From a virus: a stretch of 64,000 nt of DNA. The position numbers and the translations under genes are program-made. The DNA lies in IMG/VR virus record IMGVR_UViG_3300050119_000104, positions 1-64,000 of that record; one strand, given 5' to 3'. A model generated the notes under the pieces. That model was not told the DNA's origin, did no database searches, and saw only the letters and a list, made by a program, of their open reading frames with translations. The stretch's first letter is position 1. Each line of letters starts with the position of its first letter. This document shows positions 869 through 47,745 of the stretch, in pieces.

Positions 869-3295
869 ATGAAGCTCATTGACGCTGCACTCGATTATGG
901 GAAACAAGGTTGGAGGATTTTCCCAATTGTCCCCGGCCGAAAAGATGAGCCTCTCGTAAAATGGGGAACCGAAGCCACTAACAGCATCGATCAAATTCAA
1001 AAATGGTGGACCAGATTTCCGAACGCCAACATCGGCGTTGCCTGCGGTCAGTGCGGAATTTTTGTTGTCGATGTGGATATCAAAGACGGCAGGAACGGCA
1101 AGCGCACACTCGATGCGCTCGAACAAGCCGGTTTCAAATTATCCGAGACACGTTTTCAACGCACCCCTTCGGGCGGACTGCAATATGTTTTCCAAGGCGA
1201 CGGGCCATCGACTCAGAATATCATCGGCGCTTCGCTTTACGCCGGCACAGAGATTTCCCACATCGATACCAAAGGCGGCGGCGGCAACTACGGCGGCTAC
1301 GTCTTGCTGCCGCCTTCCCGGACATTAGACAATCCAGCGCGGCACACCAAAGCTGGAATGTACGAATGGAAGAACGGCGCAAACCACGCACTCGCGCCAA
1401 TCGATAAGTGGGTGCTCGATATGGTGGGCGAGCGCAAGATCGAGCGCACCGACAACTCAGCCGCGCCTGTCATCCGTATGGATCAGGAGAGCAACGAAGA
1501 ATGGTACATCGATTATCTCAAGAATGATGCGCCGTATTCAATCGAGTTTCAGTATGGCGAAGGGACGCTGTTACAAGTCGCCGCCAAGGGTAAGGATAGA
1601 GGACTCACCGAAGATGTGACGCTCGATCTCATTGATACCTACTACAACAAAGACATTTTAGACGGCGGCCGTTGTTGCCCGCCGTGGGACTATAACGGGC
1701 CCCCGAATAATTCTCTCAGAGTCAAGGTCCACAACGCCTACCTCTATTGCAATGAGACTGCGCCGGGCAGCGATACCCCGGAAGCTGAATTCGCCGATGC
1801 GGAAGTGCCCGACTTAGCCGGTCTAAGGAAGGCGGACGCAAAAGCCAAAGCCGATCTAAACAACCACGAAGCTGCTGAGAAAAATGACACCCTCGGGCGC
1901 GAACCCTGGGATACGGATGACGACGAGCCGACCGCCCCTCCTTTGACACCGCCGACGCGTGAGCCGTGGGATGACGCGACCACTCCACCGCCGCCAAAAC
2001 CAACGCGCGAGACATTCGAAAACTTATGCATCGATTGGGTCTACCTCACGATGATTGATCGGTTCGTAGAGCGAAAAAACCTCGACATGATCCTGAAAAG
2101 GGAAGTGTTCGATCAGCGCTATGATTACGCCAAGCCGGGTAAATCCACAAAAATTTCAAAAGTGATATTTGGTCGCTTCAACAATACGATGCCGAAACTC
2201 GATAAGCCGGTGTTCGTTCCGGGTGGAGATGAATTCATGGGCAAGACCTACAATTATTGGAGACCCTCGGAAGTCGTTGCGGCAGAGGGGGATGTGACAC
2301 TCTGGAACGCGCACCTTGAATATCTTTTTCCCGATCCTATCGCACGCGGTCACGTGCTGAATTGGTGCGCATGGCTCATCCAAAACATCAGCCTCAAGCC
2401 CAAGCATGCACTGCTCATCGTTGGCCACATGCCTGGGACGGGCAAGAGCTTCATCGCCGACGTACTCAGTCTGATCATCGGCAAGAAAAACGTCGCGCCA
2501 CTCGGGCACGCTGAGCTCGGCAGCACGTTCAATCGGTGGGCGCTCGGTTCAAAATTGCTCTTGATCGAGGAACTGCGCGCACTCGATAAGCGCGAGGTGG
2601 CGCATAAACTCCATCCGATCATCACGCAAGAAGAAATCCCGATCAACGATAAAGGTGTCGCAACATTCAAAGCCGATAATTGCTTTGGAATTTTCGCGAT
2701 GACAAACCACGAGGCGGCAATCCCACTCGACGACGGCGACCGGCGCTATCTGGTCGAACGCACCGATGCGGTACCCCGTGACGCGGCCTATTACATGGCC
2801 CTGTACATGATCCTGAAACAACCCGCAGCGCTCGCCGCCATCGCCTACGATTTGGAGCACCGCGATCTCGGCGCTTACGATGCGCGCCAGCGTGCGCCTG
2901 AAACTCAAGCCAAGCTCGATATGATCGAGTCTAGCCAAACCGATCTCGACTCATTCCTAATTTCCGAGATCGGCAACCCGCCGTTTGACCGCGATCTCAT
3001 TTGCATCCACGACGATATCATCCCGGTCATCCCGCCACGACTCATGCGCAGCGGTCCGAACGCCGGTCTGACGCGGGCAATAGCGAGCTTCCTGCGGCAT
3101 CGGCTTCGGGGCTTCCAGTTCGACCATCAGCATGTCCTCTCTGGGGGCAGGCGAGTCCGCCTGTGGTGCCTCCACGGCAAGCAGGGCATCCTCACGAAAT
3201 TGCAGCCCCACGAGCGAGTCAGGCTCTATGAAGCCCGTGGGGCCGTCGAGCGAAAGACCGCCGACGCCAAGGTCGCGGAAGATTTTGAAAGCTAA
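869..3295 (+). CDS. Bifunctional primase-polymerase fused to a D5/SF3-like NTPase-helicase
   Basis: N-terminal Prim-Pol motifs (GWRIFP, NIGVACG, VVDVD, RTPSGGLQYVF, GGYVLLPPS); C-terminal Walker A GHMPGTGKS, Walker B LLLIEE, MTNH and DRRY; GGAG RBS before ATG 869. Confidence 0.9.
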   Translation: MKLIDAALDYGKQGWRIFPIVPGRKDEPLVKWGTEATNSIDQIQKWWTRFPNANIGVACGQCGIFVVDVDIKDGRNGKRTLDALEQAGFKLSETRFQRTPSGGLQYVFQGDGPSTQNIIGASLYAGTEISHIDTKGGGGNYGGYVLLPPSRTLDNPARHTKAGMYEWKNGANHALAPIDKWVLDMVGERKIERTDNSAAPVIRMDQESNEEWYIDYLKNDAPYSIEFQYGEGTLLQVAAKGKDRGLTEDVTLDLIDTYYNKDILDGGRCCPPWDYNGPPNNSLRVKVHNAYLYCNETAPGSDTPEAEFADAEVPDLAGLRKADAKAKADLNNHEAAEKNDTLGREPWDTDDDEPTAPPLTPPTREPWDDATTPPPPKPTRETFENLCIDWVYLTMIDRFVERKNLDMILKREVFDQRYDYAKPGKSTKISKVIFGRFNNTMPKLDKPVFVPGGDEFMGKTYNYWRPSEVVAAEGDVTLWNAHLEYLFPDPIARGHVLNWCAWLIQNISLKPKHALLIVGHMPGTGKSFIADVLSLIIGKKNVAPLGHAELGSTFNRWALGSKLLLIEELRALDKREVAHKLHPIITQEEIPINDKGVATFKADNCFGIFAMTNHEAAIPLDDGDRRYLVERTDAVPRDAAYYMALYMILKQPAALAAIAYDLEHRDLGAYDARQRAPETQAKLDMIESSQTDLDSFLISEIGNPPFDRDLICIHDDIIPVIPPRLMRSGPNAGLTRAIASFLRHRLRGFQFDHQHVLSGGRRVRLWCLHGKQGILTKLQPHERVRLYEARGAVERKTADAKVAEDFES

Positions 3296-3369
3296 AGTCC
3301 GAGCACGCGGTCAATTACGATGCTGGCACGCTCACATGCCCGAAGGCTCCTGAAAATTTGGATCGCGAT

Positions 3370-3831
3370 CTAATCCACGCATCCCGGCGGACGGGGCTGC
3401 CCTCGGTCGTCCCAAGGCTCAAGCTCGTTGTCGTCCATGAGAGCCGGATCGTAAATCCAAATCTTCGCATCAGACAACGTGTCCCGCCAAATCGGTTTGC
3501 CATTCTTCTTGCCAGCAAGGATGTGGCTTATGACTCGCGTGCTGGTTTGATAGGTGGCCGATAAGGTTCGATCTGAAATAACAACGCTCTTCGCGAGCGC
3601 TGCAAACTTCTCCCGGCCGACCTGAATTATAGTTGTTCGGAGAGGATCACCATGCCGCGCACGAGCGACAGGATATTTGGAGGTGCGCCGGTACATTGCG
3701 TCAGCAATTTCGCGAAGATCATCTACAATATCTGTGAGATCGACCAACGCACCGATTTGAATTCGATGTATCACGTCTCGGAGTTGCTCGCGCAACTCAG
3801 GAGTGGTCGGCTTTACTTCAACATCGGTCAT
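3370..3831 (-). CDS. Hypothetical protein
   Basis: 153-aa ORF overlapping the upstream ORF in an operon-like arrangement. Confidence 0.5.
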   Translation of the reverse strand: MTDVEVKPTTPELREQLRDVIHRIQIGALVDLTDIVDDLREIADAMYRRTSKYPVARARHGDPLRTTIIQVGREKFAALAKSVVISDRTLSATYQTSTRVISHILAGKKNGKPIWRDTLSDAKIWIYDPALMDDNELEPWDDRGQPRPPGCVD

Positions 3832-6527: not shown

Positions 6528-6770
6528 CGTGCTTATCCGGTTGACACCCACAAAGGGTGACACGATCCGGTATTCCTCTACAGGACGCAGAGCACTCTGC
6601 GCGGCTCCCGAAGGAACCTTATTCATGACCCTTTTCAGCCTTTTGAACTGCCCCAATCGGGGTATTGGTCATGGAAACTCGATCTTACGTGTGCTTTCAA
6701 TCAGTCGAGAGCGATTGTCAAAACGAAGAAAAGCAAAATTTCAGGTAGCTGTCAAGCGTTGGGTGTCATC
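6528..6770 (-). mobile_element. Divergent copy of the IS1595-type MITE/omega-RNA-like cassette (copy A)
   Basis: TIR CGTGCTTATCCGGTTGACACCCAC at 6528; shares GCGCAGAGTGCTCTGCGTCCTGTAGAGG and the CTTGACAGC..AATTTTGCTTTTC block with the other copies; far TIR degenerate. Confidence 0.85.
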
Positions 6771-6842
6771 GTTTGATATCTTCTTCGCTTCCCGGGAGCC
6801 TCTGATACGGCGGATGGCGGTTCTCATATAGCATCCTTCGAC

Positions 6843-7364: not shown

Positions 7365-7386
7365 GGGGAACTTCCTTTTTATCAGT

Positions 7387-7759
7387 CGGTACTCTCAACA
7401 TGCACGGCTCGCTCTCGAGCTTCGGTACTCTCTCAGCTTTCGGCTCGCTCCACGACTTCGGTACTCTCCGCGTTCTCGGCTCGCTCTCTGTTTTCGGTAC
7501 TCTCCGTGTTTTCGGCTCGCTCCACGACTTCGGTACTCTCCGCGGTCTCGGCTCGCTCCACGACTTCGGTACTCTCCGCGTTCACGGCTCGCTCTTTGTT
7601 CATCGGTACTCTCGGCGGGCTGCGGCTCGCTCTCGTGCCTCGGTACTCTCACTCCTAGACGGCTCGCTCCTGACTTCCGGTACTCTCCCTGTGCTCGGCT
7701 CGCTCACGGTCCTCGGTACTCTCTCGCGTCCCGGCTCGCTCTTGGTTCATCGGTACTCT
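7387..7759 (-). repeat. TIGR-like dual-repeat array (AGCGAGCCG / AGAGTACCG alternating, 9-10-nt spacers)
   Basis: On + strand, 11 exact CGGTACTCT and 10 exact CGGCTCGCT alternate strictly with 20 variable 9-10-nt spacers; unit 36-37 nt; directly downstream of a Nop/IS110-like gene. Confidence 0.85.
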
Positions 7760-8171: not shown

Positions 8172-8211
8172 CATGCTTATCCGGTTTGAACATACATCCC
8201 CCAAAGGTTGA

Positions 8212-9255
8212 TTAGTCATGATGGGTTTCCATCGTCGGATGCTTCCAAGTTCCCTCGTAAATCCCGGCATAGGTCGGGCCTTCGCCGTTGGTCCCGATGC
8301 CGAGCAGCGAGCGGAAGGCGTTGAACGGGTAGAAGCGCCGGTTAAAGCGGAACGTGAACTCATTGAGGTAGGCTTGCAGATGTTGCGGCTCGACGCGCCC
8401 GTGGTGCGTGCCCTGCAACCACGCCTTGAGGTTCGAAAACACAAGGTGGACGATGGGCAGAAATTCCTCAGCGACTTCCGGGTTTCCGGCTTCGACAACC
8501 GGCAGATGGGCGTAGCCGCTCATGCCGAGCTTGTTATAGGCCGGTGCCGCGTCCGTGATGACTATCGCGCCCGGCTCGACGGCCTGTTCCACAAAGCCAA
8601 CCAGAGACTTAGCGGATCGGTCAGGAACGATTTCCAGCCGCAGGCGGCCAGCGTAGCGCCCGCCGCGTCGCATGGGCTTATCGCCCTTCTTAGCCGGACG
8701 GGTGCGAACCTCAACAGCGGCAGATACGATAGTTTTATCATCAGCATGCGGGCCACGCCCTTCACCGCGCAGCATACCGCCGATGTAGGTTTCATCAACT
8801 TCGACATGATCGCCGCGCGCCAGATTGCTACCTATCCGGTCGCGGCCTTGTCGGACCATGCCAGCGCGCAGCTTATGCAGGATTTGGAACGCGGTTTCGT
8901 ATCGGGTAAGGCCAAGCTGGCGCTGGAACTGCACGGCAGACATGCCGGGTGTCATGCTCGAAACGAGATAGGCCGCCCAAAACCATACCGTCAGCGGCGT
9001 GTGCGTGCGCTGCATCACGGTATCGACCGTCAGCGACGTTTGCTTGCGGCAGACGCGACACGTCAGGACGCTGGTACGGGTCGCCATGCGGAACGGCTCG
9101 CCTTTTTCCTCGCAATGCGGACATACGAAACCCTTGGGCCACTTCGCGCCCTCCAAGTATCTGGCGCAAGCGGCGTCATCCTTGAACAACCGCTGGAAAT
9201 CTCTGAGAGATTTGGGGAAAGGCAAGTGTTCCCATTGGAGAATGTCGGGGGCCAT
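8212..9255 (-). CDS. IS1595-family DDE transposase
   Basis: N-terminal Zn ribbon CPHC..CRVC; VEVDETYIGG, VITD, VHLVFSNLK (D-D-H-K pattern of the ISSod11 group), YLNEFTFRFNRR. Confidence 0.95.
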   Translation of the reverse strand: MAPDILQWEHLPFPKSLRDFQRLFKDDAACARYLEGAKWPKGFVCPHCEEKGEPFRMATRTSVLTCRVCRKQTSLTVDTVMQRTHTPLTVWFWAAYLVSSMTPGMSAVQFQRQLGLTRYETAFQILHKLRAGMVRQGRDRIGSNLARGDHVEVDETYIGGMLRGEGRGPHADDKTIVSAAVEVRTRPAKKGDKPMRRGGRYAGRLRLEIVPDRSAKSLVGFVEQAVEPGAIVITDAAPAYNKLGMSGYAHLPVVEAGNPEVAEEFLPIVHLVFSNLKAWLQGTHHGRVEPQHLQAYLNEFTFRFNRRFYPFNAFRSLLGIGTNGEGPTYAGIYEGTWKHPTMETHHD

Positions 9256-9262
9256 AGCTTGC

Positions 9263-9448
9263 TCAACCCCTTTCCGCTGCTGGGAAAATTCCGTGCGGCC
9301 CAGTTCCCTCGTCAGTGGGCTTGGGCTCTGGGCGCTTTGGGCCAGGGATTACTCGTCGGCCATCTTCCGAGTACGTCGCAAGACAGTAGGGGCAGGTCCG
9401 CACAATCCCGGCCCAAAACGAATGTGAGTGAGTGCAAAGCCGGGTCAT
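9263..9448 (-). CDS. IS cargo gene, small Cys/His-containing protein
   Basis: 61-aa ORF coupled by ATGA overlap to the upstream cargo gene. Confidence 0.45.
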   Translation of the reverse strand: MTRLCTHSHSFWAGIVRTCPYCLATYSEDGRRVIPGPKRPEPKPTDEGTGPHGIFPAAERG

Positions 9449-9819
9449 GCCCCGACCCCAAATTGGGCATTATCGACCTTTGCCGCGCGAACGGCGTCCG
9501 GGGTGCGCTGCGCGTGCCAGTTCTTATCGAAGTCTTCCATTGCGGCTTCTGGCGTCTCACCGAAACCGCAGACGCCGCTCATGATGTCGTCGCCATAGAG
9601 GGCGCACCATTGGCTCCCGTCCGCATAGACGGAAGGCCGAAACAGGACAGCCGGGCGCTGCATTTCCCATGTGACGGTCATGAACTGATCGCGGATCATT
9701 ACTTGGGAGTGCGAAATATCAAAGGCTTGGTGCGCCGCCTCGCGGACAACCTCGCCAATATTGCCGCCGCTGATCCGGCTGCGAACCGCGTCATAGATTG
9801 CTTGGTAATTGTCGCTCAT
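9445..9819 (-). CDS. IS cargo gene, phage-type hypothetical with HicB-like C-terminal motif
   Basis: WCALYGDDIMSGVCGFGETPEAAMEDF resembles the HicB N-terminal G-T-EEA motif. Confidence 0.55.
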   Translation of the reverse strand: MSDNYQAIYDAVRSRISGGNIGEVVREAAHQAFDISHSQVMIRDQFMTVTWEMQRPAVLFRPSVYADGSQWCALYGDDIMSGVCGFGETPEAAMEDFDKNWHAQRTPDAVRAAKVDNAQFGVGA

Positions 9820-10361
9820 GGCGCTACCCCAAATTCTGGCGTGCGAGGGTCAAGGTTGCGTTGCAGCGGGTCCATGCCGCCGAGTTTTTCGATAGCCGCA
9901 AGGCAAGCGCTAATCGCCTCGCAGTATCCCTTGGCGACAAGGTCTTGTTCCAGAAACGTGCCGCCGAGCGAGTTAATTTCATGCCACGCCTGATCAAGCG
10001 CCCAGTTAGCTTCCGCCTCGCTGTTGAGGCCGTTGCAAACGGCGGCTGCGATGGCAAGGTTTTCTTGCCTAGACAGTTCCCTAGCGCCAGTAGCCGCGAC
10101 ATCGACCCCGTCGCGGCTAACCCATCCCATTCCGTCATCGCCGCGCAATTCCCTAAAGCTGTATCCCTCTTTGTGGATCATGCGAGCCTCCCGATGCCGC
10201 GCGTGGCGATAAGGACGTTCGCCGCCGCGATGGGCGAGAAGCCCGACGCTAACAGGTGGGCTAGGCGTAATTGCTCTTCCGTGCGGAGGCGTGGCTGCTC
10301 GCCGCGCTTCGTGAGGGCGGTTTGTACTTTTACAAAGAAACTGTCGTTTTTCATGGGTCAT
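9816..10361 (-). CDS. IS cargo gene, hypothetical (true start may lie further downstream)
   Basis: 181-aa ORF overlapping the next cargo gene by ATGA. Confidence 0.5.
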   Translation of the reverse strand: MTHEKRQFLCKSTNRPHEARRAATPPHGRAITPSPPVSVGLLAHRGGERPYRHARHREARMIHKEGYSFRELRGDDGMGWVSRDGVDVAATGARELSRQENLAIAAAVCNGLNSEAEANWALDQAWHEINSLGGTFLEQDLVAKGYCEAISACLAAIEKLGGMDPLQRNLDPRTPEFGVAP

Positions 10362-10421
10362 CTCCTATCCAATGGCAGCAATCTATCAGAGGTATTTGTA
10401 TGTGTCAACCGGATAAGCATG

Positions 10422-12839: not shown

Positions 12840-13700
12840 GGTTTTCAATTTGGCTATCTCAGCACTCTCGGATCGTTCTCAGATTATCCGAGATGGGCAA
12901 AGCTTTATTTATCAATTACTTAGATCACTATCTCATCATTCTCATCAATTTGAGAGATAGATTGATAGAGTAGTACTATAGGTTGTAGTAGGTACATGTA
13001 ATACACTGCGTAGGAAATGACTTGGCGAGATGCTGAGTATGCTGAGAGCGAGCCCAAAAGGGGGCTTAAGTCATTGATAACACTGATAAACACTCATCTC
13101 AGATAGTGGTAAATCATCCGAGAGGTATCCGAGAATGGATGCGCCTTACGCGATATGGCTGACTCCCGGCGTCGGCTCGACCGGATCATTGAAGAATTCC
13201 TCTTTCTCGGGCCGCGTTAACCTTAACGCTTAACCTTGCTCGCGTACGAAGTCTGCCCACCAAAAAATCCCCTGTATTATCAAGTACTTAGCTCACCCGT
13301 CTGCCCACGATCCTTTCTTTTTTACATTAACAGTGCCCCTTTAGGCCCACTATATAGTGTATATTTAAGGTTAATATGCCCACTGAGGCTAAAAGTTAAG
13401 GTTAACCGCGTCGGTTGGGTGGCTGTTAACCTTTATTAACGAGCGGTCAGTCGTATTTAACCTTAATTCTATACTATAGTTGCGCCGCTCGGTCGCATTA
13501 ACCTTAATTCTATACTATGGTTGCGCCTTGAGGACTCGAAGTTTTCTTTTTTACCCAGCCGCATTAACCATGGTGGGCAAATTAACCCTCTCGAAGGTTG
13601 GTGCTTGACAAGTCCCGGAGGGTGGCTCAGCTACGGGGAAGGTCTACTAAATTGATCGACTATGTGCAAAACGTATGAGGGGTACAATCTGTGCTTCGTG
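12840..13700. other. AT-rich non-coding divergent region with iterated motifs (origin or control region)
   Basis: Repeated TCTCAG/ATCCGAGA motifs (12856-13140), about a dozen TTAACC/GGTTAA motifs (13217-13590), 30-bp direct repeat at 13457-13486 and 13498-13527; gene orientation switches here. Confidence 0.65.
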
Positions 13701-13768
13701 CGATTTTCTCAAAAAGAATAAATAAAAAAGAATAAATAAAAAAGAACCATCAATTTTCTCAAAGCGAA

Positions 13769-14021
13769 CATGCTTATCCGGTTGATGCCCAATGCTTGAC
13801 AGCCACCTGGAATTTTGCTTTTCTCCATTCCGACAATCGCCTCCGATTGATTGGGGGTATCTAAAGACCATGTTTCCGTCGTCTGTTCGCGCCGAAAGGT
13901 AATCCGAGAGGTAGAACGGCGATGAATAAGGTCCATTTCGGTGGACCGCGCAGAGTGCTCTGCGTCCTGTAGAGGAGAGCCGGGTTCGTGTCGCCCATTG
14001 GGCGTCAACCGGATAAGCACG
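13769..14021 (+). mobile_element. IS1595-type MITE/omega-RNA-like cassette (copy C, 253 bp)
   Basis: TIRs CATGCTTATCCGGTTGA(T)GCCCAATG / CATTGGGCGTCAACCGGATAAGCACG; no direct TSD. Confidence 0.92.
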
Positions 14022-14051
14022 CGCTTTGTCATTCGGAAACCGGTTCACACA

Positions 14052-14594
14052 ATGACCAACATCATGCTCGATATCGAAACGCTCGGACTGGACTCGACTG
14101 CCGTCGTCCTCAGCATCGGCGTGACCAAATTCACACTGAATGAAGCGGCACCACTGATCGGCGACTCAATGTTGTGGACGCCAAACTTGGCGGAGCAATT
14201 CGCCAAAGGCCGCAACGTCAACCACTCCACGCTCGACTTCTGGCGCAAGCAACCAGACGCAGCCAAAGCGAGTTGGCTCTATCCGTCGAAACCCGAACCC
14301 GTTCATACGGCACTCACCGAATTGAGCCAGTTCATTAGTAGCGACTACGAAGTCATGATGTGGGCCAACGGGATCACGTTCGACTTCGGCATCATGGCGT
14401 CGCTCTATCATGACTTTGAAATCCAGGTGCCGTGGAAGTACAACGCAGTCCGCGACGCACGAACCATCTATCGCGTGCTGCCAAAGATACGAACGCGGCC
14501 GGAAGGATCGGAGCAAGGCCCTGAACATGATCCGGTCGCCGATTGCATCTTCCAAATTTGGAATCTGTGGGAGCATTGGCCATTCGGCAATTGA
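14052..14594 (+). CDS. DEDDh 3'-5' exonuclease (phage exonuclease VIII/RNase T-like)
   Basis: IMLDIETLG, WANGITFD, RDART, HDPVAD motifs. Confidence 0.85.
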   Translation: MTNIMLDIETLGLDSTAVVLSIGVTKFTLNEAAPLIGDSMLWTPNLAEQFAKGRNVNHSTLDFWRKQPDAAKASWLYPSKPEPVHTALTELSQFISSDYEVMMWANGITFDFGIMASLYHDFEIQVPWKYNAVRDARTIYRVLPKIRTRPEGSEQGPEHDPVADCIFQIWNLWEHWPFGN

Positions 14595-14636
14595 CATCCG
14601 CACACTGTCGTGCCAATTTTCAGAAATGCACTGGAG

Positions 14637-14871
14637 CATGCTTATCCGGTTGACGCCCAATGCTTGACAGCCACCTGGAATTTTGCTTTTCTCCGTTCCG
14701 ACAATCGCCTCCGATTGATTGGAGGTAGCTAATGTTTCCGTCGTCCGTTCGCGCCGAAAGGTAGAACGGCGATGAATAAGGTCCATTTCGGTGGATCGCG
14801 CAGAGTGCTCTGCGTCCTGTAGAGGAGAGCCGGGTTCGTGTCGCCCATTGGGCGTCAACCGGATAAGCACG
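14637..14871 (+). mobile_element. IS1595-type MITE (copy D, 235 bp)
   Basis: Both TIRs; 8-bp TSD CACTGGAG. Confidence 0.95.
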
Positions 14872-15219
14872 CACTGGAGTAAGCGCAGGGCGGCTAACTG
14901 GTGCCGTCATTGTGATCTTGAAAGCATGAAAGAACAACGCAGTTGTTGATGACGGACTTAAACACGCAGATGGCGATTTCTTTGCCGAAGTCGGCATCTA
15001 TGAGAATTCCTGAAACTGGCAGTGGAGTCGCCGTGATAGCGAAGCTGATCACGCTGTGGCGGGCGATGAAGCGCCCAATCCCAACATGACCGTGACCAAC
15101 GAAGAGTTAGAAGTCGCCTGCCGTGCCACGTATGGACCAATGGACCGGATGCCCGGTGAGAAGCGGCAGTACGCTCGAAAGTTCTTAGAAGCCGTCGATG
15201 CGTATCGAGCGCGGCCCAC

Positions 15220-15453
15220 ATGACCGCGACCATTCTAAAATTTCCGACTCCCGCCACTGTGACCCTTCGCGACGAGCGCTCGGTCCAAGCGTGGATCGAT
15301 GAGCTAGTGTCTGACCATCCCGAGCTTGGGGGTATGGAGCTTGAGGAAATTTTTGTGAAGTACATCTGCGAAGGAATACCAAACCCTATTCAATCAAGCC
15401 TTGGCGCGCGCATACTTTTCAGATCGAAAGTTCGCTACGTTCCACCCCGTTAG
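15220..15453 (+). CDS. Hypothetical protein
   Basis: 77-aa ORF. Confidence 0.4.
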   Translation: MTATILKFPTPATVTLRDERSVQAWIDELVSDHPELGGMELEEIFVKYICEGIPNPIQSSLGARILFRSKVRYVPPR

Positions 15454-15471
15454 CTCAGTGATAGAAGGCTT

Positions 15472-15706
15472 CATGCTTATCCGGTTGACGCCCAATGCTT
15501 GACAGCCACCTGGAATTTTGCTTTTCTCCGTTCCGACAATCGCCTCCGATTGATTGGAGGTAGCTAATGTTTCCGTCGTCCGTTCGCGCCGAAAGGTAGA
15601 ACGGCGATGAATAAGGTCCATTTCGGTGGATCGCGCAGAGTGCTCTGCGTCCTGTAGAGGAGAGCCGGGTTCGTGTCGCCCATTGGGCGTCAACCGGATA
15701 AGCACG
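15472..15706 (+). mobile_element. IS1595-type MITE (copy E, 235 bp) inserted at the tip of the TnpB element's left TIR
   Basis: Both TIRs; 8-bp TSD GAAGGCTT. Confidence 0.95.
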
Positions 15707-15707
15707 G

Positions 15708-16846
15708 AAGGCTTATCCGGTTGATACCCACAGGCGCTAAATCCAGATGATCTTGACCTACAAATATCGCATCAAGAACCGGAACGCCAAGTCGGCTTTG
15801 CGCCGCCACGCCTTTGCGGTCAATCAGGTGTGGAATTACTGCTGTGCGCAACAGCGCGATATCGAGTCGCGTTATCGGGCCGGAGCGCCGAAGCGCAAAT
15901 GGGCGTCACACTATGACTTGCAACGCCTCTGCAAAGGCGCGGGAGCGATGTTTGGCATTCACCAACAGACCATCGGCGGCGTGTGCCGAACTTTCGCGCA
16001 AGCCCGCGACAAGGCTCGGCACGCCCCGGCGTTCCGCAAGAGCTACGGCGTGAAACGGTCCTTGGGTTGGATACCGTTTGAGGGCCAAAGCCGCCAGATC
16101 AAAGACGGCGTTGTAACCTATCTCGGCAAACGCTTCTACCTTTGGGGCCTCAAGCGGCGGCCTATTCCCGCTACGGTCAAGGGCGGCGCGTTCGTAGAGG
16201 ATGCCTTGGGGCGTTGGTATGTGTGCCTCACGGTTGAGGTCGAACGCACCCCCGCAACCGGCAACAAGGCCATCGGCATCGATTTAGGACTGAAAAGCCT
16301 CGCCACGCTCAGTGATGGCCGCAAGATCGAGGCACCACAAATCTATCGCCGATATGAACAACAGCTTGCCGCGCTACAGCGCGCAGGAAAGCGGCGTCAT
16401 GCGAAGCGGTTGCACGCGAAGATCAAAGCGTGCAGGGCTGATTTTCTACATAAGATTTCGACGGAGCTTGCTGGTCAGAACGCGATCATCGCAGTGGGCA
16501 ATGTCAATGCACGCGCCTTGGCGTCCAAGTCAGTCCTTGATGCCGGGTGGTCCTCATTCCGAAAGATGCTCGCCTACAAGGCGACCGACTATCGGGAGGT
16601 GGACGAAAGGTTCACGACCCAAGATTGTTCGGCGTGCGGTGCACGCGGTGGCCCAAAAGGTCAAAAAGGTCTTGGAATAAGGCAATGGCAATGTTCATCC
16701 TGTGGCGAAAGCCATGACCGCGATGTGAACGCGGCTTTGAACATTCTCGCCATTGCCCGGCGCAGTGCTGCGCCGCCTGTTGAGGAATACCGGAGAGCGG
16801 CATGACACAGGATTTAGTGCCCGTGGGTGTCAACCGGATAAGCACG
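15708..16846 (+). mobile_element. Non-autonomous IS1595-TIR element carrying tnpB
   Basis: Left GCTTATCCGGTTGATACCCACAGGCGCTAAATC versus reverse complement of right end GCTTATCCGGTTGACACCCACGGGCACTAAATC (30/33 identical); no IS605 end hairpins. Confidence 0.85.
15747..16805 (+). CDS. tnpB: TnpB RNA-guided nuclease with rearranged RuvC-II
   Basis: GIDLGLK, AVGNV, VDERFTTQDCSAC, CSSCGESHDRDVNAALNI. Confidence 0.95.
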   Translation: MILTYKYRIKNRNAKSALRRHAFAVNQVWNYCCAQQRDIESRYRAGAPKRKWASHYDLQRLCKGAGAMFGIHQQTIGGVCRTFAQARDKARHAPAFRKSYGVKRSLGWIPFEGQSRQIKDGVVTYLGKRFYLWGLKRRPIPATVKGGAFVEDALGRWYVCLTVEVERTPATGNKAIGIDLGLKSLATLSDGRKIEAPQIYRRYEQQLAALQRAGKRRHAKRLHAKIKACRADFLHKISTELAGQNAIIAVGNVNARALASKSVLDAGWSSFRKMLAYKATDYREVDERFTTQDCSACGARGGPKGQKGLGIRQWQCSSCGESHDRDVNAALNILAIARRSAAPPVEEYRRAA

Positions 16847-16934
16847 CCAAGGGCTAGATCATGCCTACGCAATGTGGACTGTACGTGTCCCATTATGGGA
16901 CAGTCGAGGCGGCGGCCTTCATATAGGGTCAAAA

Positions 16935-17111
16935 ATGAAACCGAAAAAATACTACCGCATGTTCGCAGCGAAGCGCGACGGCGTACTCAATTGCGGCTTC
17001 ATTTCGTTCACTGCGGCCAACGTGCGCTACCGAGTCGGTCTGCTTTATGAGGGCTGGCAGCGAGCAAAGAAAAAAGGTTGGCGCGTCGTGCGAGTTTGGA
17101 TTAGTGAATGA
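16935..17111 (+). CDS. Hypothetical protein
   Basis: Short basic ORF. Confidence 0.4.
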   Translation: MKPKKYYRMFAAKRDGVLNCGFISFTAANVRYRVGLLYEGWQRAKKKGWRVVRVWISE

Positions 17112-18451: not shown

Positions 18452-18707
18452 CAATCTTATCCGCCGGTTGACGCCCAATGCTTGACAGCCACCTGGAATT
18501 TTGCTTTTCTCCGTTCCGACAATCGCCTCCGATTGATTGGGGGTAGCTAAAGACCATGTTTCCGTCGTCCGTTCGCGCCGAAAGGTAATCCGAGAGGTAG
18601 AACGGCGATGAATAAGGTCCATTTCGGTGGACCGCGCAGAGTGCTCTGCGTCCTGTAGAGGAGAGCCGGGTTCGTGTCGCCCATTGGGCGTCAACCGGAT
18701 AAGCACG
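18452..18707 (+). mobile_element. IS1595-type MITE (copy G), left TIR degenerate
   Basis: CAATCTTATCCGCCGGTTGACGCCC (3-nt insertion); right TIR intact; no TSD. Confidence 0.9.
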
Positions 18708-18726: not shown

Positions 18727-18966
18727 ATGATGCCTGACGACAGAGTGTGTGAGGACGGCGAGTTTTGCATCTGTATAAGAAATGATTGGGATCGCGAGAC
18801 GTGTGAGCTTTTCCATTTCCCAAGTCCCAAAACGCTGCGCTCCGGCCGCTCGACTATGCTCACCGAATTGCGCGACCAGGGGCACGACCGCATCCGCAAA
18901 GAGAATGCCGAGACCCGCGACCGCCGCGCTGCGCTCCGCGCTACGCTGCCTAGGAAACATCGATGA
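18727..18966 (+). CDS. Hypothetical protein between two MITEs
   Basis: 79-aa ORF with GAGG RBS. Confidence 0.4.
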   Translation: MMPDDRVCEDGEFCICIRNDWDRETCELFHFPSPKTLRSGRSTMLTELRDQGHDRIRKENAETRDRRAALRATLPRKHR

Positions 18967-18973
18967 CAGAATA

Positions 18974-19208
18974 GCCCAATGCTTGACAGCCACCTGGAAT
19001 TTTGCTTTTCTCCGTTCCGACAATCGCCTCCGATTGATTGGGGGTAACTAAAGACCATGTTTCCGTCGTCCGTTCGCGCCGAAAGGTAATCCGAGAGGTA
19101 GAACGGCGATGAATAAGGTCCATTTCGGTGGATCGCGCAGAGTGCTCTGCGTCCTGTAGAGGAGAGCCGGGTTCGTGTCGCCCATTGGGCGTCAACCGGA
19201 TAAGCACG
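18974..19208 (+). mobile_element. IS1595-type MITE (copy H), left TIR deleted
   Basis: Begins at GCCCAATGCTTGACAG; right TIR intact. Confidence 0.9.
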
Positions 19209-19237
19209 CATCTGTCATCTGAAAGGGAAGAACCCCC

Positions 19238-21505: not shown

Positions 21506-24500
21506 ATGAAAGGTGATGGTGATTTGAGGATGCTAGGAGTGCGAGACGGCTTGGCGTCTGCGCTTGTGCATTTACGCTGTCAAACGATGGCGTCGCTCAA
21601 GCAAGAGCGCCAGCGTCTTGATCCACGGCATGTTCGGAAGATTGCCGAGAATGAGCGTCGCCTGGGGCCTTTGCTGAAACTTGACCGCTGGCTAGAAATC
21701 CAAGTCGGTGAAGTGGATAAAGCCTACAAAAAGACCCGCGAAATTGGATGCGAAGGCGAAGGATCGAGCCAACCCTATGAAATGGGTCATATTTAGCTGG
21801 TCAAAGTCCAGCCGCATCCTCCATTTTGTATCTGTTAACCACTGCCCGGGGTTTCGGTTGAAAGTCTCGCCGGGCATGCTACGTTCTGAGCAACAGAAAA
21901 GGACTACCAAATGAAGAACCCAGGAAATGATTTCCATCGCCGCGACGCTGATGCGCGTTGGGCGAACGAACTTATCCGTGGCGAGGCACAGGCTAAGCTC
22001 AATGCCCGTGAATGGTTGCGGCGTTCAGACGAGACCAACGATGTTGGGCTGGCTTGTCGCCTCATCGATCAGGCGCAGTTGGAACTGCGACCCTACGGAC
22101 ACTGAATTTACGCATAGCGGCAGTGTGGACGGGAAGTTCCTGCTCTGCCGAATTTTTAAACGATCAGTGGGTGTACCGGGACGCGTCGGTCCCGCTGGGT
22201 CTCGCAAAGTACCGCATCGAGCGATGCTTCGCGAGACCAAACCAGGAGAATGAAAATGACCTCGTTTACTGGGTACAGCAAGCTTCATGACGTACCGACA
22301 CAATCTGTCAGTGTTCACGAAGCTGCCGCCCGCGCCGCTCGCGACGTACTCGCGCACGGTCTACAGACTTCCATGGTCACCATGGGGTCACGTCTTGACT
22401 AACTTTGAAGCTGCCTACTTTTACCGCCGAGATATCGCGCAAGCAATTGCGCGGTACTCGGCGTCCTTGCGCACAATCTTCAAGGCGCATGGAAGCCCTA
22501 TCCCGCCCTCACCGGACTGCGCCTGCGCTATGGGCAACGCTTGGGCCCTATGCCGTGTGGACTTCTACAAAGCCGACCAGCGACTCGCGCTGGCCCGCCT
22601 GGACGAGTTTACAACGCGCAACGATGCGTAGCGCGAGCGCGAGCGCGCGGCCCGATCTGGCGTTAACCCCCTGCTAACCACTCCAACAAGTCTCGCTTGA
22701 ACGCGCCAGGGGGCATGCTACATTCAAATCACGGGAACGGAGCCACTCGCCAAAACGGCCGGGCAAACCTTCCGGGTCTCGCGGATGCAAGGGAAGCGTT
22801 TCATCGACACAACTTACCCATGTACCGCGAAAAAATAAAGTCCGGCGGAGTGCGATTGAGTGAATACGTCGCGCCGCCGGACTAACTGAAGGAACGTTAT
22901 TTGACAACGCCACTCGACAAAGCCGCTGCGGGCTGGATGCCCTGAATATCGCGGTCTATACGGTAATCCAAAATTATCGTGCCGATGCGGCGCTCTCAAA
23001 TAACGGAGTTGAAAACGACCCGATTTCTAATCGGGGAGAGTTGAAGCTGACTGGTCCGTTCGTGAGATGCAAGCATAACGGCGGGCAGAGGTTGGCGGCA
23101 AGACAGCCGGGGTGATCACCCGAAATTAAGTAAACGGGTCTGACAAGCTCCCCACGATTAGAGATCGAAGCAAGGAGTTGAAAATGGCTGACCGTAAGTG
23201 GACCAACTACAGTGCCGTTGCCGCGTGCGAAGGCTTCGACGGCCAGGATCACGATGAGGAAACGATTTTCAGTGCATGGCAATACCTCATCGACACCGAC
23301 CTCGTTTGCTCGCTTCAAGGATGGTTCGGGCGGCAGGCGCAGGCTCTCATCGACGCCGGGCATTGTTCGCCCCCAACAGGAGACTGCTAAAATGATACCG
23401 CGTCCTCTTTCTCAGATCGCCGCCGACATACGCAAGGACTGGCGTCGCCCGAATTATGCGGCGGTGCCCTACCTCGATGCCATGGCGTCGCTCAACGATA
23501 TTGGCGACAACTATTTCGCTGATAGCGCAAAATCCATTGTGCTCTACTTTCTCGGAAACGCGAGCACATGGCGCGGCCCGGTCGCCAAGGCGATCAAAGG
23601 CGAGCTTAAACTTATGGCCGGCTACAAATGACCATGTTCGACCAAGCAAAGTTCGACTCGTTCCTCGTTCGAGCGCAGGCGGTAGTCGATGCCCACTACA
23701 AGGGCTTGCCCGCGCGTCTGGTCCTATCGGCGATGTTCGGTCGGAAATTCATCCGCATCGTAAGCGAGTGGAATAGCCAACGCACGTCTTTTTGTTTCGT
23801 GGATCGTGAGACTGGCGACGTGCTCAAGTGCGATAGCCGGACACATCCGGCGAAGCACGCTCGCGGGAATATTAACGACGAGGCCAACGGTCTCGACGCC
23901 ATCACGCCTTACGGCGCAAAATATCTAAGGTGATGCTATGAAACGCACGCGAAGAACCAAAGCACGCGAGCTTATCGAGCGGCTCAATCGCGGGCCCGCG
24001 TTCAGCCTGCATGCATCCTTCGGTGGACTCACGGCAGCGTACATACCGCCTAAGGCTCGATCATTGATCGAAGCTGAGATGAGCCGCCAATATCGTGGCT
24101 GGATCGAAAGTTGGGTTCAGGACGACGTTCTCGACTTGGTACCCGAGCTTCGGAAAGGAGCAGATGAAATATGACAGCTTTTCATCACGAAATTTCCAAG
24201 TGCAAACGCTGGCGCGCGGGCGATGTGGTTCGAGTTTTTGACGGCGCGTTCAGTGATGCTGTTGTGCTCGGTTTCGACGCCAAGGGCGACGCGCTCGTGC
24301 AACGCGCCTATGCCTACGCGTCGTGTGTCGGTACCACGGGACCGACGGTGCTGCTCGGTTCGGAACGCATCGTGTATCCTTCGCTGGATTGCTTCGAAAA
24401 AGTCGGAGAGGGCCGCGTGTCATGAACCTACAACCGATCTGCCCGTCGATACCGGCGGAGAATGCACAAAAAACGCAATGGCGCTTCGCGTGCCGTGGCT

Positions 24501-24625
24501 GCGGCAAATTGAAAGTCGCTGACTCGTACACGCGAGCGGACATGGATGGTCCGGCGTTCAATGCGTACTACTGCGGCGAGTGCGTTACCGATATGCATCG
24601 CATCGATATCGTTCTGCCGATGTAA
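21506..24625 (+). CDS. Run of small early hypothetical ORFs (21506..21796, 21911..22105, 22287..22631, 22697..22885, 23184..23390, 23392..23631, 23628..23933, 23938..24174, 24171..24425, 24422..24625)
   Basis: Co-oriented, mostly with RBS or overlapping stop/start; 23392..23631 and 23628..23933 (GRKFIRI..FVD..TGDVLK...PAKHARGNI) resemble widespread phage hypotheticals. Confidence 0.55.
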
Positions 24626-25141
24626 AGGAAGGACCAAAAATGAAGCGAAGCATTTACCATGCTCAAAGGTCTCGCTTGCAAGCCTCCCAGGAGGTGCTAT
24701 GTTTTCAGTTGTCAGAACGGCGAGGCACACTTTCAAGCCCTCGGGGGAGACAAGCTCCCAACGGTCTGATAGCCGGTCAAGCGGCTTAAGCGGGTAGATC
24801 AGCGGTCGGGTGCTGATCCGGGAAACGACGGTGTAGTCCTTTCCTTGGGGAGCCCTAGAGGGTCGTTGATCCGCACTTGACGGAATTTACGTCCGGCGAG
24901 CAATGGGCAAAGCCCTCTAAGCTCAGGATCGCCGGGCCACCAATTCAGGAGCAACGACGATGGCGCTACGCAGAAAAGTTCTTCGGCCGATCATCGGCAC
25001 CCTGCGTTCCGCGCGTGCGGAGCAGATCGCCCTTCGCATGCTCACCGACGCGAAGCAGTTTCAAGTTAATCCCAGCCTCGCGACTCGCCTTGTGCGGTTG
25101 CAGGTCAAACAGAGAGGTGCTCAGGCATAGTGAAAAACCTA

Positions 25142-26073: not shown

Positions 26074-26329
26074 CGTGCTTATCCGGTTGACGCCCAATGG
26101 GCGACACGAACCCGGCTCTCCTCTACAGGACGCAGAGCACTCTGCGCGATCCACCGAAATGGACCTTATTCATCGCCGTTCTACCTCTCGGATTACCTTT
26201 CGGCGCGAACGGACGACGGAAACATCATGGTCTTTAGCTACCCCCAATCAATCGGAGGCGATTGTCGGAACGGAGAAAAGCAAAATTCCAGGTGGCTGTC
26301 AAGCATTGGGCGTCAACCGGATAAGCATG
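26074..26329 (-). mobile_element. IS1595-type MITE (copy J, 256 bp, inverted relative to local genes)
   Basis: Both TIRs; no TSD; its CATG end could supply the ATG (26327) of the ORF running to 26530. Confidence 0.92.
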
Positions 26330-28411: not shown

Positions 28412-30542
28412 ATGACCGATCTAACAATCCCCGACGATCTCTCGATCCCGAAATTCCTGGACTTGAAAATTCCAGCGAACCACACGGCTTGGAAAGAGGG
28501 TCACAAAATTTGGACGCCCCGGAAGGTCAAGGCCGAAGCCAAGGCAAAGATCAATCGTGATAGTGAAGGCCGCTCGTTGCCGAAGAACATGGATGAAACT
28601 TCCTGGGCATTCTTGCGCGCCCAAGAAAAGGAAACCAAAGCTGAGGTTGAAGCGGATAAAGCTGAGCGCTTCCGATTTTTGGAAGCTTTGCGCCAAGAAA
28701 AGGCTCGGGTCAAGGCAGCGGCGAAGGCGGTTAAGCATGCCATATGATGGCGCTGGACAATACCGATATTGAAAGGCTAGGAAGAGACCATGACGATGAA
28801 ATGTGTTCAGATTGTCGGGGCAACATGTCCTGATCCGAGTCAGTGACGGGGACGCACATGAGCAGTAACCTTATAGACTGCGATCTCTATCCTTGGTGCG
28901 ATAGCCAGGGTTGCGTAGGTCATCCTGAGACTTGCCACCGCGCAGCAGATTTGCGTGCCGGTATTGACAAGCGTAATCCATTCTCAAAGGGGTCACGCAC
29001 TTTCGGACACCTAGGTACCAAGCAGGAATTGCTTCGGCGCTTGCAGGAGCTACAGCGGGGATATCAGGAAGCAGCCGCGCCAATCATCCAACAACTCGCG
29101 GATATCGTGGCGCTCGAACCGCCACCGCCGACTATTCCGCGCGATCAGATATCGCCGGAAATTCTGAAAATTATAAAAAGGCAAGAAAATGACCAAACTT
29201 GAAAAGGCCCTCTATCACACACGAGTCGCGCTCACGATTGCATTTGCTCTCGGACTCGTTGCAATCCCTTGTGCACAAGCCGAGGTGCTCGCGCTGCCGC
29301 AAACCGACAACGGTTACAGCTACTGCCAGGGCGGTCTCTGTGTGTGGGGTTCGGGCGCGCTGCCGACTCCCGGCGTGCATCAAGTGCCCCAGCCCTCGTC
29401 CGAAGATCGAGAAGCTGCCGCGAAACACGAGCATGAGTGGGCGGAGCGGTGCAAGCCGACAATCGGCTATGACGCCTATGGTGTCGCGCGCTACACTTAT
29501 GCCAAAACCGGTTGCGAATTCGGTAATGGCCGATGAAGTTTTATCTCGCGCTCGTGTCACTTCGGTTCAATCAATTCGCGTGGCGGCTGTGGATGTTAAG
29601 CGAACGATGGAACCAAGAATGCATCGACCGATGGCTGTTCAATAATAGATAGGTTCATGCTTATCCGGTTGACGCCCAATGCTTGACAGCCACCTGGAAT
29701 TTTGCTTTTCTCCGTTCCGACAATCGCCTCCGATTGATTGGGGGTATCTAAAGACCATGTTTCCGTCGTCTGTTCGCGCCGAAAGGTAGAACGGCGATGA
29801 ATAAGGTCCATTTCGGTGGATCGCGCAGAGTGCTCTGCGTCCTGTAGAGGGAGAGCCGGGTTCGTGTCGTCCATTGGGCGTCAACCGGATAAGCACGGGT
29901 TATAATCCGGCCCAAAGTTTATAATACCGGATTGCGGTTCGCGAGCGTTCGTGCGAAAGTCTCGGTCGAAACACAGGAGGCAATCACATGGCGACTGTTC
30001 GAAAACTTTTGAAGCGCGTGAAAAAGACGATCAGACAAGCGCAAATGGCAACGGCCGATGCGAGATTTGCTACGCAGGAAATTCACGATCTCATCGATGC
30101 GATGAATGCTACGCCCCCTCTTACAGACCCGGAGTCGGAAAGCCCGGCGACTCCGGCGGAAGATGAGACACAAAGCCCGGCGGCGTATTCGGGCGGCTGC
30201 TGAGAGAGTGGTTTACGAAGATACGCTCGATAATCCGTTCTCGACGTAACTGCAAAAAAGGAAGTCCCCAAAATGAGCAACACATCTGGAAGATGCTTTC
30301 GAGCTTTCCGCCGAACAAAGAAACGGCTGAATAGTCAGGGCCGTCCTTGGGCGCGACCGATCAGAACCAAAATCCCGCTCTCCCTCCGAATGTTCATGCT
30401 CCCTGGTCATGGACAAGCGAGTCAGAAATCAGTCACGCGTGACGTGCTGGCTGGTATCGTTCAGCGATATACGGCGGCGTGGATGGCTTACGTCAAGAAA
30501 ATGCAGGCTGAGAAAGCTGCCGCTGCGAAAGCCGCCAACTAA
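28412..30542 (+). CDS. Small hypothetical ORFs (28412..28747, 28858..29202, 29189..29536 exported, 29988..30203, 30273..30542)
   Basis: GGAG/AGGA RBS before most starts. Confidence 0.5.
29656..29897 (+). mobile_element. IS1595-type MITE (copy K, 242 bp)
   Basis: Both TIRs; no TSD; same variant as copy L. Confidence 0.92.
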
Positions 30543-45747: not shown

Positions 45748-46185
45748 ATGATCGATGTAGATTTGAATGATCATAGTGGCGGACCGCATTGGCTCACAAA
45801 AGCAGGCGGTCATGACCACGCCAAAAATATCCGCGCCAAGCACCGCGCTGCGTGGGTAGCGAAGCATCCGCGCGTGCCTAATCCCGTGCGCCCGGAGACG
45901 ATGGCGAAGTTGGAAGCTGTCAGCGCCTATGCGCAGAAAGTTCACGCTGCCAAAGTCCTGGCTCGAATAACCAAAACCTGGAATACCGCGCTCGCGATCA
46001 TCGATAAATCAGAGCTTGTATTGCGCGACGTGATCGAGCGCGGGCTTTTGAATACCGCCGGACTTGATCATCAGCGCTACAATGATGCGATGCGGGTCGC
46101 TGACCGACTCATGAAAAAGATCACACGCATTCGGACCAAAGCCATCAAAGCTGCCTTCCGCCTTTTGCGGGATCAATCCTATTAA
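45748..46185 (+). CDS. Hypothetical basic protein
   Basis: 145-aa ORF; its stop codon lies inside the IS605 right end. Confidence 0.55.
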   Translation: MIDVDLNDHSGGPHWLTKAGGHDHAKNIRAKHRAAWVAKHPRVPNPVRPETMAKLEAVSAYAQKVHAAKVLARITKTWNTALAIIDKSELVLRDVIERGLLNTAGLDHQRYNDAMRVADRLMKKITRIRTKAIKAAFRLLRDQSY

Positions 46186-46198
46186 CGTCTTCCCCGGT

Positions 46199-47275: not shown

Positions 47276-47304
47276 ACGCAGGAAGTATTGGTCGGTGGTC
47301 AAAA

Positions 47305-47715: not shown

Positions 47716-47745
47716 AGGGCAAGGTTTCCGGCTTGGAGATTTACG

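Follow-up and report, generated by a model that had tools for sequence, protein, structure and literature searches.

The right inverted repeat of IS1595-type miniature elements in a phage genome is probably part of a TnpB guide-RNA scaffold

The virus record IMGVR_UViG_3300050119_000104 (117,459 bp), a phage that recurs across more than 20 metagenome runs from peat and permafrost, harbors a family of miniature inverted-repeat transposable elements (MITEs), the interior of which is homologous to the 3' end of tnpB, that is, to the omega-RNA scaffold. We analyzed the first 64 kb of the record (64,000 nucleotides, hereafter the window), focusing on the MITE at 13769–14021. Its right end and the adjoining flank (13998–14040) read CCCATTGGGCGTCAA-CCGGATAAGCACG followed by CGCTTTGTCATTCGGAAA, and a preliminary description of this site had left 2 options for the guide that would be supplied to TnpB: either the scaffold stops at TCAA and the guide starts with the outer tip of the terminal inverted repeat (TIR), or the entire TIR is scaffold, and the target-site duplication (TSD) and the flank make up the guide. 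The second option is supported both by covariation within a pseudoknot that involves the tip and by a one-sided motif at the left flank. Thus, the 13-nt tip is likely to belong to the scaffold rather than to the guide, which would be formed by the TSD and the flank.

The family shares a 23-nt TIR, C[A/G]TGCTTATCCGGTTGACGCCCA, and a size of approximately 240 bp; 9 copies are located in the window and further copies in the rest of the genome, with most being 91–100% identical. The window contains 22 matches to the tip (up to 2 mismatches), compared to 1.8 expected, a number reached in none of 100 shuffles. The tip had been described as invariant after TCAA and it is: the exact 13-mer CCGGATAAGCACG is found at the RNA-3' end of all 9 window copies as well as of the cassette carrying tnpB1, the 3' end of which aligns with the MITE interior, and TCAA directly precedes the tip in every copy of this genome except for the remnant at 111442 (TCAG).

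The role of the tip became apparent from a set of 160 loci encoding TnpB1 relatives. TnpBs that are at least approximately 52% identical to TnpB1, originating from phages and alphaproteobacterial metagenome-assembled genomes (MAGs), are followed by a YCGGATARGCACG tip, and all 23 tip-bearing TnpBs fall within one clade of 27 (SH-aLRT, the approximate likelihood-ratio branch support, of 98). The 3' regions of the clade display a common order of elements, namely hairpin A, a small hairpin, the motif GAGGAAAGCCGG with a variable insert of 5–45 nt, and the tip. Across 24 distinct clade members, including the MITE 13769–14021 and tnpB1, the loop of hairpin A covaries with tip bases 8–12, the loop/tip pairing being GTGCT/AGCAC in the latter two, GTGTC/GACAC in L107, GCGTC/GACGC in L101, GCGTT/AACGC in L007, GCAC/GTGC in L109 and GCGCT/AGCGC in L125. 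In the alignment of these sequences, the pseudoknot helix is 99.2% paired and 4 of its 5 pairs show changes in both strands. Over the structure as a whole, pairing amounts to 99.1%, versus 33–39% with slid partners, and was matched by none of 500 shuffles; mapped onto the TnpB tree, the pair types underwent a minimum of 2, 1, 6 and 8 changes with the pairing kept. The right tip always reads CACG (C at position 12), whereas the left tips and the IS1595 ends read CATG, because C12 pairs with a G in the loop of hairpin A; the restriction of this C to the right tip fits an additional RNA constraint on that end. Rfam searches returned no family at the gathering score and, for 13500–17000, none at E values up to 1.

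A homologous pseudoknot is present in 33 IS605-type relatives, including tnpB4 from the same window, where the hairpin loop pairs with the scaffold tail (GACGT/ACGTC, GACAT/ATGTC, AACGT/ACGTT and AACAT/ATGTT; 100% paired, 3 covarying pairs). Its 3' strand stops 2 nt before the right end of the transposon, which is mapped to the base by nine Acinetobacter thermotolerans copies (ending in GGATGTCAA, left flank TTTAT) and is also defined by the comparison of tnpB4 with L008. In the ISDra2 omega-RNA as solved by cryo-electron microscopy, the pseudoknot occupies positions −6 to −2, directly 5' of the guide (PMC10097598), and a guide starting from the first flank base would place the tip strand exactly at −6 to −2. 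Since the pseudoknot strand corresponds to tip bases 8–12 and only tip base 13 follows it, the guide predicted from the covariation must start with either the first or the second flank base.

The alternative, in which the scaffold ends at UCAA as in IS605 right ends and a common guide, CCGGAUAAGCACG plus a few flank bases, sends TnpB to IS1595-type ends to cut just outside them, draws on the invariance of the 13-mer, on the GTCAA that precedes it in nearly all copies of this phage, and on IS605-type relatives, whose guide boundary falls exactly at the end of GACGTCAA or GATGTCAA. Indeed, an alignment of the IS605 right end GACGTCAA to the MITE sequence GGGCGTCAA initially favored the TCAA boundary; it was abandoned, as GTCAA is not conserved in the wider clade and the pseudoknot maps to the tip. 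Many tip-keeping members of the TnpB clade have other letters at this place, for example CATGCC before ACGG, GCGTT before CCGG or GGCGC before CCGG. Furthermore, tip bases 8–12 cannot be guide because they already serve as the pseudoknot strand; the own DNA of each copy would be a perfect target with the same preceding bases; and the one-sided motif at the left flank would be left without a role. Finally, TTGAC/GTCAA is part of the TIR both in the autonomous IS1595 element and in cargo elements lacking an omega-RNA. Given the evidence for DDE-type mobility, namely TSDs, matching transposase ends and a contig that skips a MITE, the repeat is a generic IS1595-type end rather than an IS605 right end. 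We consider the UCAA boundary highly improbable. A related model, an IS605-like element nested in a palindromic pad with TTGAC as the target-adjacent motif (TAM) and TCAA as the right end, was likewise rejected: TTGAC/GTCAA belongs to the IS1595 TIR and no tip-tip palindrome occurs in the genome.

As for the base following the right tip, it is A in 12 of the 14 tip-type tnpB loci without a left tip (L006, L007, L016, L099, L101, L104, L107, L109, L111, L125, L126 and L127) and resembles the unpaired A before the guide of the IS605-type relatives. Such loci may represent immobilized copies with a fixed guide.

The mobility of the family is of the DDE type. The window carries one autonomous IS1595-family element, the transposase of which (Pfam DDE_Tnp_IS1595, 1.3e-34; Zn_ribbon_IS1595, 1e-11) is the sole copy of its kind in the genome; this element is likely to be the mobilizer of the MITEs and, by way of correction, does carry an 8-bp TSD. 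TSDs of 8 bp also flank tnpB cassettes in 2 other records, L012 and L102, and a DNA contig from run X10 skips 250 nt at 32002–32253, exactly the MITE 32011–32252 and one TSD, with 8 letters fitting both sides and the shorter side comprising only 22 letters. IS200/IS605 elements are moved by Y1 TnpA, have subterminal hairpins and lack both inverted ends and TSDs. The MITEs and the tnpB1 and tnpB2 cassettes do not belong with them: they are bounded by inverted ends of 23–33 nt, and the MITEs have 8-bp TSDs, the 2 cassettes being without TSD. A 22-nt end identical to that of the right TIR, GGGCGTCAACCGGATAAGCACG, was recovered on 45 metagenome contigs (L171–L215; also L005:1511–2115) from soils, sediments and groundwater, where it bounds many unrelated cargo elements, with sizes of 392, 603, 605, 852, 1634 and 2429 bp; 8-bp TSDs flank six such elements.

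The ends of the family also enclose three tnpB genes, of which tnpB1 is in the window and tnpB2 and tnpB3 are outside it. TnpB1 is a compact protein of 352 aa that matches OrfB_IS605 (2.4e-17) and Cas12f1-like_TNB (8.2e-20) in Pfam and ISDra2 TnpB in PDB (4.4e-24), and the aspartates of its GIDLG and HDRD motifs align with those of ISDra2-like TnpB; the stop codon at 16805 is located 41 nt from the cassette end at 16846. A fourth gene, tnpB4, resides in a complete IS605-type element (46182–47800, minus strand) with the end hairpins CCTTGCCC-TTCA-GGGCGAGG on the left and CCCTGGCC-TTTA-GACCGGGG on the right, so that a single genome holds both vehicles, IS605-type and IS1595-type, for one TnpB lineage. 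The left-end boundary of the tnpB4 element, and with it the TAM, could not be fixed from 2 copies. Outside the window, at 116344–117459, the contig ends inside the tnpB3 cassette, with tnpB3 scoring equally to tnpB2 against TnpB1; because the contig stops within this repeated cassette, the "linear" end of the record is probably an assembly break at a repeat.

The second line of evidence on the guide comes from the left flank, where, for 21 distinct insertions bearing an omega-RNA, we compared the three bases to the left of the 8-nt block abutting the left tip. All 21 have T at −2; at −3, 14 have A and 5 have C (19 of 21 together), with G and T seen once each, and any base occurs at −1. On the mirrored right side, T is found in 8 and A or C in 10 of the 21 (Fisher left versus right, p = 1.6e-5 at −2 and 0.006 at −3), and in each of the 8 MITE insertions whose two ends are intact, T at −2 is restricted to the left. 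Next to elements with the same TIRs but without an omega-RNA, A or C occupies −3 on 3 of 11 sides (Fisher p = 5.6e-4 versus the omega-RNA-bearing set). Because the [A/C]-T-N motif lies immediately left of the left-hand TSD, where the TAM of the empty allele would be located, it favors a homing reading, in which the guide recognizes the insertion-free site.

From these observations, we infer the following scheme. The MITEs and tnpB cassettes are the cargo of an IS1595-type DDE transposon with 23-nt inverted ends and an 8-bp TSD, its transposase acting in trans, and this cargo is a TnpB omega-RNA scaffold fitted onto the right inverted repeat. AGCAC of the tip and GUGCU of the hairpin A loop form the guide-adjacent pseudoknot, leaving one tip base before the boundary, and each copy would give rise to an RNA whose guide is the first 16–20 nt outside the element, comprising the 8-nt TSD and the adjoining flank. 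Such a guide would match the insertion-free allele, where the match would be preceded by the left flank with [A/C]-T-N, read as a TAM. Cutting of these empty alleles in the IS605 style by TnpB1, TnpB2 and TnpB3 in trans is the most likely function suggested by the sequences; in the phage, co-infecting genomes without the insertion would be cut, with subsequent repair copying the element. A more tentative extension, toward which we lean less than away from it, is that the family constitutes a distributed multi-locus gene drive: each MITE would be a self-contained, allele-specific homing cassette whose guide is written by the insertion itself (TSD plus flank), only TAM-adjacent insertions would persist, a few tnpB genes would serve all copies in trans by cutting those co-infecting genomes in which the respective insertion is missing, and the same 13 bases would act as DDE transposon end and pseudoknot strand.

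When the genome and the collected loci were searched for second sites matching the flank guides, only the guide of copy 15472 had any. As this MITE sits in the left tip of the tnpB1 cassette (15464–15722), its predicted guide, GAAGGCUUAUCCGGUUGAUA, is itself a left inverted repeat and matches every left end of the family with up to 3 mismatches, all 5' (36 matches).

Several observations weigh against the homing reading. The canonical RuvC-II glutamate (IAVEDLN) is replaced by glycine in TnpB1 (IAVGNVN); candidates for a relocated glutamate are the invariant E284 and E287, 7–10 positions before CxxC, which fit the published "rearranged RuvC-II" class (PMC13565253, PMC10691335). The outer stem of the scaffold, CCGG/CCGG, is invariant, so that covariation provides no test of it, and the guide start is uncertain by one base, with 2 bases following the pseudoknot in the IS605-type relatives and 1 in the tip. 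The metatranscriptome runs X22 and X23 cover small parts of the region as assembled contigs, which show neither transcription nor strand nor RNA ends; one X22 contig begins at 14010, 12 nt before the flank (DNA contigs reach 26–30 nt into the repeat), and an X23 contig spans the 3' part of a 6528-type MITE. A consensus scan revealed no sigma-70-type promoter inside the MITE, the conserved TTGACA being without a recognizable −10. In a simple empty allele, a TSD-less copy would lack a target preceded by the TAM. Last, T is also found at −2 on 7 of the 11 sides beside same-TIR elements without an omega-RNA, including both sides of symmetric ones, and part of the T at −2 may reflect transposase preference. 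Taken further, [A/C]-T-N as a whole would be a target preference of the IS1595 transposase rather than a TAM, and the TnpB RNA would have a function other than homing, for example in regulation or defense. We give this explanation little credence: a DDE preference should be symmetric, whereas T occurs on all 21 left versus 8 mirrored right sides, and A or C at −3 distinguishes 19 of the 21 insertions from the elements lacking an omega-RNA (3 of 11). It is the one-sidedness and the −3 base that are specific, in the way a TAM would be expected to produce.

The lack of a recognizable promoter, the inability of the X22 and X23 contigs to show transcription, the absence of an Rfam match and the 91–100% identity of most copies, indicative of their young age, would suit MITEs that are ordinary deletion derivatives of a tnpB cassette, maintained because their ends transpose, with an RNA-like interior that is a relic unused by any TnpB. 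Against this stands the RNA-3' end, which is kept by all 6 truncated or remnant copies, none of which retains the left end alone. Moreover, copy 6528, diverged to 73% identity, has kept the tip and hairpin A along with the motif GAGGAAUACCGG and an inner hairpin of altered sequence; T at −2 is confined to the left side in all 8 intact-ended insertions; the same genome has three intact tnpB genes with matching scaffolds; and Fanzor "ghost" loci of the same design act in trans (PMC10432273). A relic is thus unlikely, although less so than a mere target preference of the transposase, and we retain homing as the preferred reading.

The preliminary description had also noted that TSDs are missing from 6 of the 9 window copies (13769, 26074, 29656, 18455, 18956 and 6528) and from the tnpB1 cassette, and that the left ends of 3 copies (6528, 18455 and 18956) are mutated or truncated; these counts were reproduced here, and across the whole 117-kb genome TSDs flank 5 of the 8 MITEs with both ends intact. 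The proposed cause, breaks made by TnpB at the element ends, is not supported, because the boundary favored above does not aim TnpB at these ends. The left junctions of the TSD-less copies look intact, as judged from the motif being at the correct distance, and the irregularity is on the right. The alternative offered at that time, inversion or ectopic recombination between copies, left no trace either: the predicted flank pairings are absent, and there are no flank homologies and no matching TSD halves. The preferential retention of right ends, observed in 6 of 6 truncated copies and remnants of this genome and mirrored by the left tip being kept at only approximately 12 of 27 tip-type tnpB loci elsewhere, fits better with a requirement of the RNA for the right tip, the left tip serving transposition alone. 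Comparison with empty alleles, which had been suggested as a check, was possible for one TSD-less copy: the contig of a relative displays an empty site at 29656, with 4 nt missing beside the right tip. For 13769, a gapped flank-pattern search of IMG/VR found no empty allele, and a protein search with the neighboring gene found no related viral loci.

The flanks of 2 TSD-less copies share a further feature. Those of MITE 13769–14021 (13746–13768 and 14022–14036) are reverse-complementary to each other (CAAAGCG/CGCTTTG), as are those of the left-truncated copy ending at 19208 (18956–18973 and 19209–19225; GATGACAGA/TCTGTCATC), and the joined flanks would form perfect hairpins in both cases. Either these elements inserted into hairpin loops without TSD or the repeats were produced by repair.

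The IS1595 family in ISfinder comprises insertion sequences together with MITEs or passenger-carrying relatives, and the elements described here conform to it in having a DDE_Tnp_IS1595 and zinc-ribbon transposase, inverted ends, an 8-bp TSD and non-autonomous derivatives with the same ends; they differ in carrying a guide-RNA scaffold as cargo and in the second role of the right tip as RNA structure. With the ISDra2/IS605-family TnpB-omega-RNA homing system (Karvelis 2021; Meers 2023; structure in PMC10097598), they share the TnpB domains, the scaffold at the tnpB 3' end and the pseudoknot directly 5' of the guide as well as, by prediction, a guide taken from flanking DNA and a TAM from the left flank. 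Unlike that system, they lack both Y1 TnpA and subterminal hairpins, have inverted ends and duplicate 8 bp; the first 8 guide bases would be duplicated target, and the target specificity of the transposase cannot impose a TAM.

TnpBs within DDE transposons, with inverted ends and solo copies in the same ends, have been described as branches DDE-1 to DDE-6, whose guides were assumed to derive from the DNA past the end (Altae-Tran et al. 2023 PNAS, PMC10691335). Like these, the phage cassettes have symmetric DDE inverted ends, a tnpB 3' end less than 250 bp from the end and solo copies mobilized in trans. The partner family here is IS1595, whereas IS630, ISL2 and IS1031 are named in that study and in a 2026 review (PMC13565253), and PMC10691335 describes no TIR-spanning pseudoknot, TAM-like landing motif or ORF-less (lacking an open reading frame) RNA-only derivatives. 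Such derivatives are known from the eukaryotic Fanzor1 Spu-1, where ORF-less "ghost" loci keep the omega-RNA beside the right inverted repeat and their RNAs act in trans (Saito et al. 2023 Nature, PMC10432273). Both are inverted-repeat-flanked TnpB-family nucleases with many ORF-less omega-RNA copies, and the Spu-1 guide downstream of the right repeat and conserved motif upstream of the left repeat are matched here by prediction. By contrast, Spu-1 belongs to another nuclease clade and its transposase is unidentified, whereas the present elements reside in a phage, a dozen copies in 117 kb, and have IS1595-type ends with an 8-bp TSD. The MITEs are therefore an analogue, not a member, of the Fanzor "ghost" loci: the nuclease is a prokaryotic TnpB with a predicted action in trans.

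The general arrangement, TnpB within DDE ends, is already published, and our results refine known work rather than define a new class. They add covariation evidence that the tip is a pseudoknot strand, linked to an exactly mapped IS605-type boundary, and a one-sided motif that covers the RNA-only MITEs too, in a phage that combines three tnpB genes with about a dozen cassettes, a prokaryotic counterpart to the "ghost" loci. For a TnpB on a cut-and-paste (DDE) transposon, sequence alone thereby offers an answer as to where the guide starts: outside the inverted repeat, because the tip of the repeat has been recruited into an RNA pseudoknot. The [A/C]TN motif offers a candidate way around the objection that a fixed TAM cannot come from a DDE transposon, in that only TAM-adjacent insertions would be retained or spread. 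The 352-aa TnpB, the defined scaffold end, the predicted TAM and about a dozen natural guides are testable reagents.

Table 1. Coordinates of the features discussed in the text, numbered from the first letter of the window.
Feature	Position	Strand	Description
MITE with the site under study	13769–14021	+	253 bp, IS1595-type, non-autonomous, no ORF; interior homologous to tnpB 3' end (omega-RNA scaffold)
Left junction of this MITE	13758–13768	+	CTC ([A/C]-T-N motif), then 8-nt block AAAGCGAA abutting the left tip
Left 23-nt TIR	13769–13791		CATGCTTATCCGGTTGATGCCCA
Hairpin A	13948–13965	+	GCGCAG/CUGCGU stem; 5 of 6 pairs covary in the clade
Pseudoknot 5' strand	13955–13959	+	GUGCU, loop of hairpin A
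Small hairpin	13966–13975	+	CCU-GUAG-AGG, covarying
Inner hairpin	13992–14004	+	CGCCCA-U-UGGGCG; right-end-specific arm pairs with the inner TIR; followed by UCAA (14005–14008)
Right 23-nt TIR	13999–14021		TGGGCGTCAACCGGATAAGCACG
Outer 13-nt tip	14009–14021	+	CCGGATAAGCACG; transposase end and 3' tail of the RNA scaffold
Pseudoknot 3' strand	14016–14020	+	AGCAC, tip bases 8–12; single tip base (G14021) after
Predicted guide of this MITE	14022–14041	+	CGCUUUGUCAUUCGGAAACC; predicted from pseudoknot position; unique in genome; overlaps 5' leader of the downstream gene (ATG 14052)
MITE, diverged	6528–6782	−	73% identity; left end degenerate, right end intact; without TSD
MITE	14637–14871	+	perfect 8-bp TSD CACTGGAG
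MITE	15472–15706	+	perfect 8-bp TSD GAAGGCTT; inserted within the left tip of the tnpB1 cassette
MITE	18455–18707	+	left tip mutated; without TSD
MITE (copy 18956)	18974–19208	+	first 18 nt of left end absent; without TSD
MITE	26074–26329	−	inverted orientation; without TSD
MITE	29656–29897	+	only a 4-bp duplication (GGTT), counted as without 8-bp TSD
MITE	32011–32252	+	perfect 8-bp TSD CAACAAAG
tnpB1 cassette	15708–16846	+	same TIRs; tnpB1 gene 15747–16805; left tip interrupted by MITE 15472–15706
Autonomous IS1595-family element	8172–10421	−	DDE transposase 8212–9255 (−); TSD ATCGGGAT; outer 18 nt of TIR common to the MITEs
tnpB4 element, IS605-type comparator	46182–47275	−	tnpB4 47275–46214, 51% identical to TnpB1; right end GAAGACGTTAA; Y1 tnpA upstream

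Other traces of the family, or of repeats close to it, were noted along the way. Repeats spaced by 36 nt form a tandem family at 7386–7747, directly upstream of the IS1595 insertion. In a contig of run X10, the 1257-nt stretch 23421–24679 gives way to 29 letters (TATCCGGTTCCACAGGAACTAAATCCAGA) similar to a tnpB cassette's left end, and weak tip-like matches are found at 23847 and 24809. The tnpB cassette of an AT-rich phage (L003:2525–3780) has 38-nt inverted ends and a tnpB frame that enters the tip, the stop codon being the TAA inside GGATAAG; the ORF is split into 2612–3097 and 3131–3775. Finally, a tnpB cassette from a Xanthobacteraceae MAG (L014:940–1000 and 2088–2115) has a left tip that is 9 nt short on its outer side. 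CGCGCAT is found immediately left of CCGGTTGAC and again after the right tip, and resembles a TSD that survived a small left-tip deletion.

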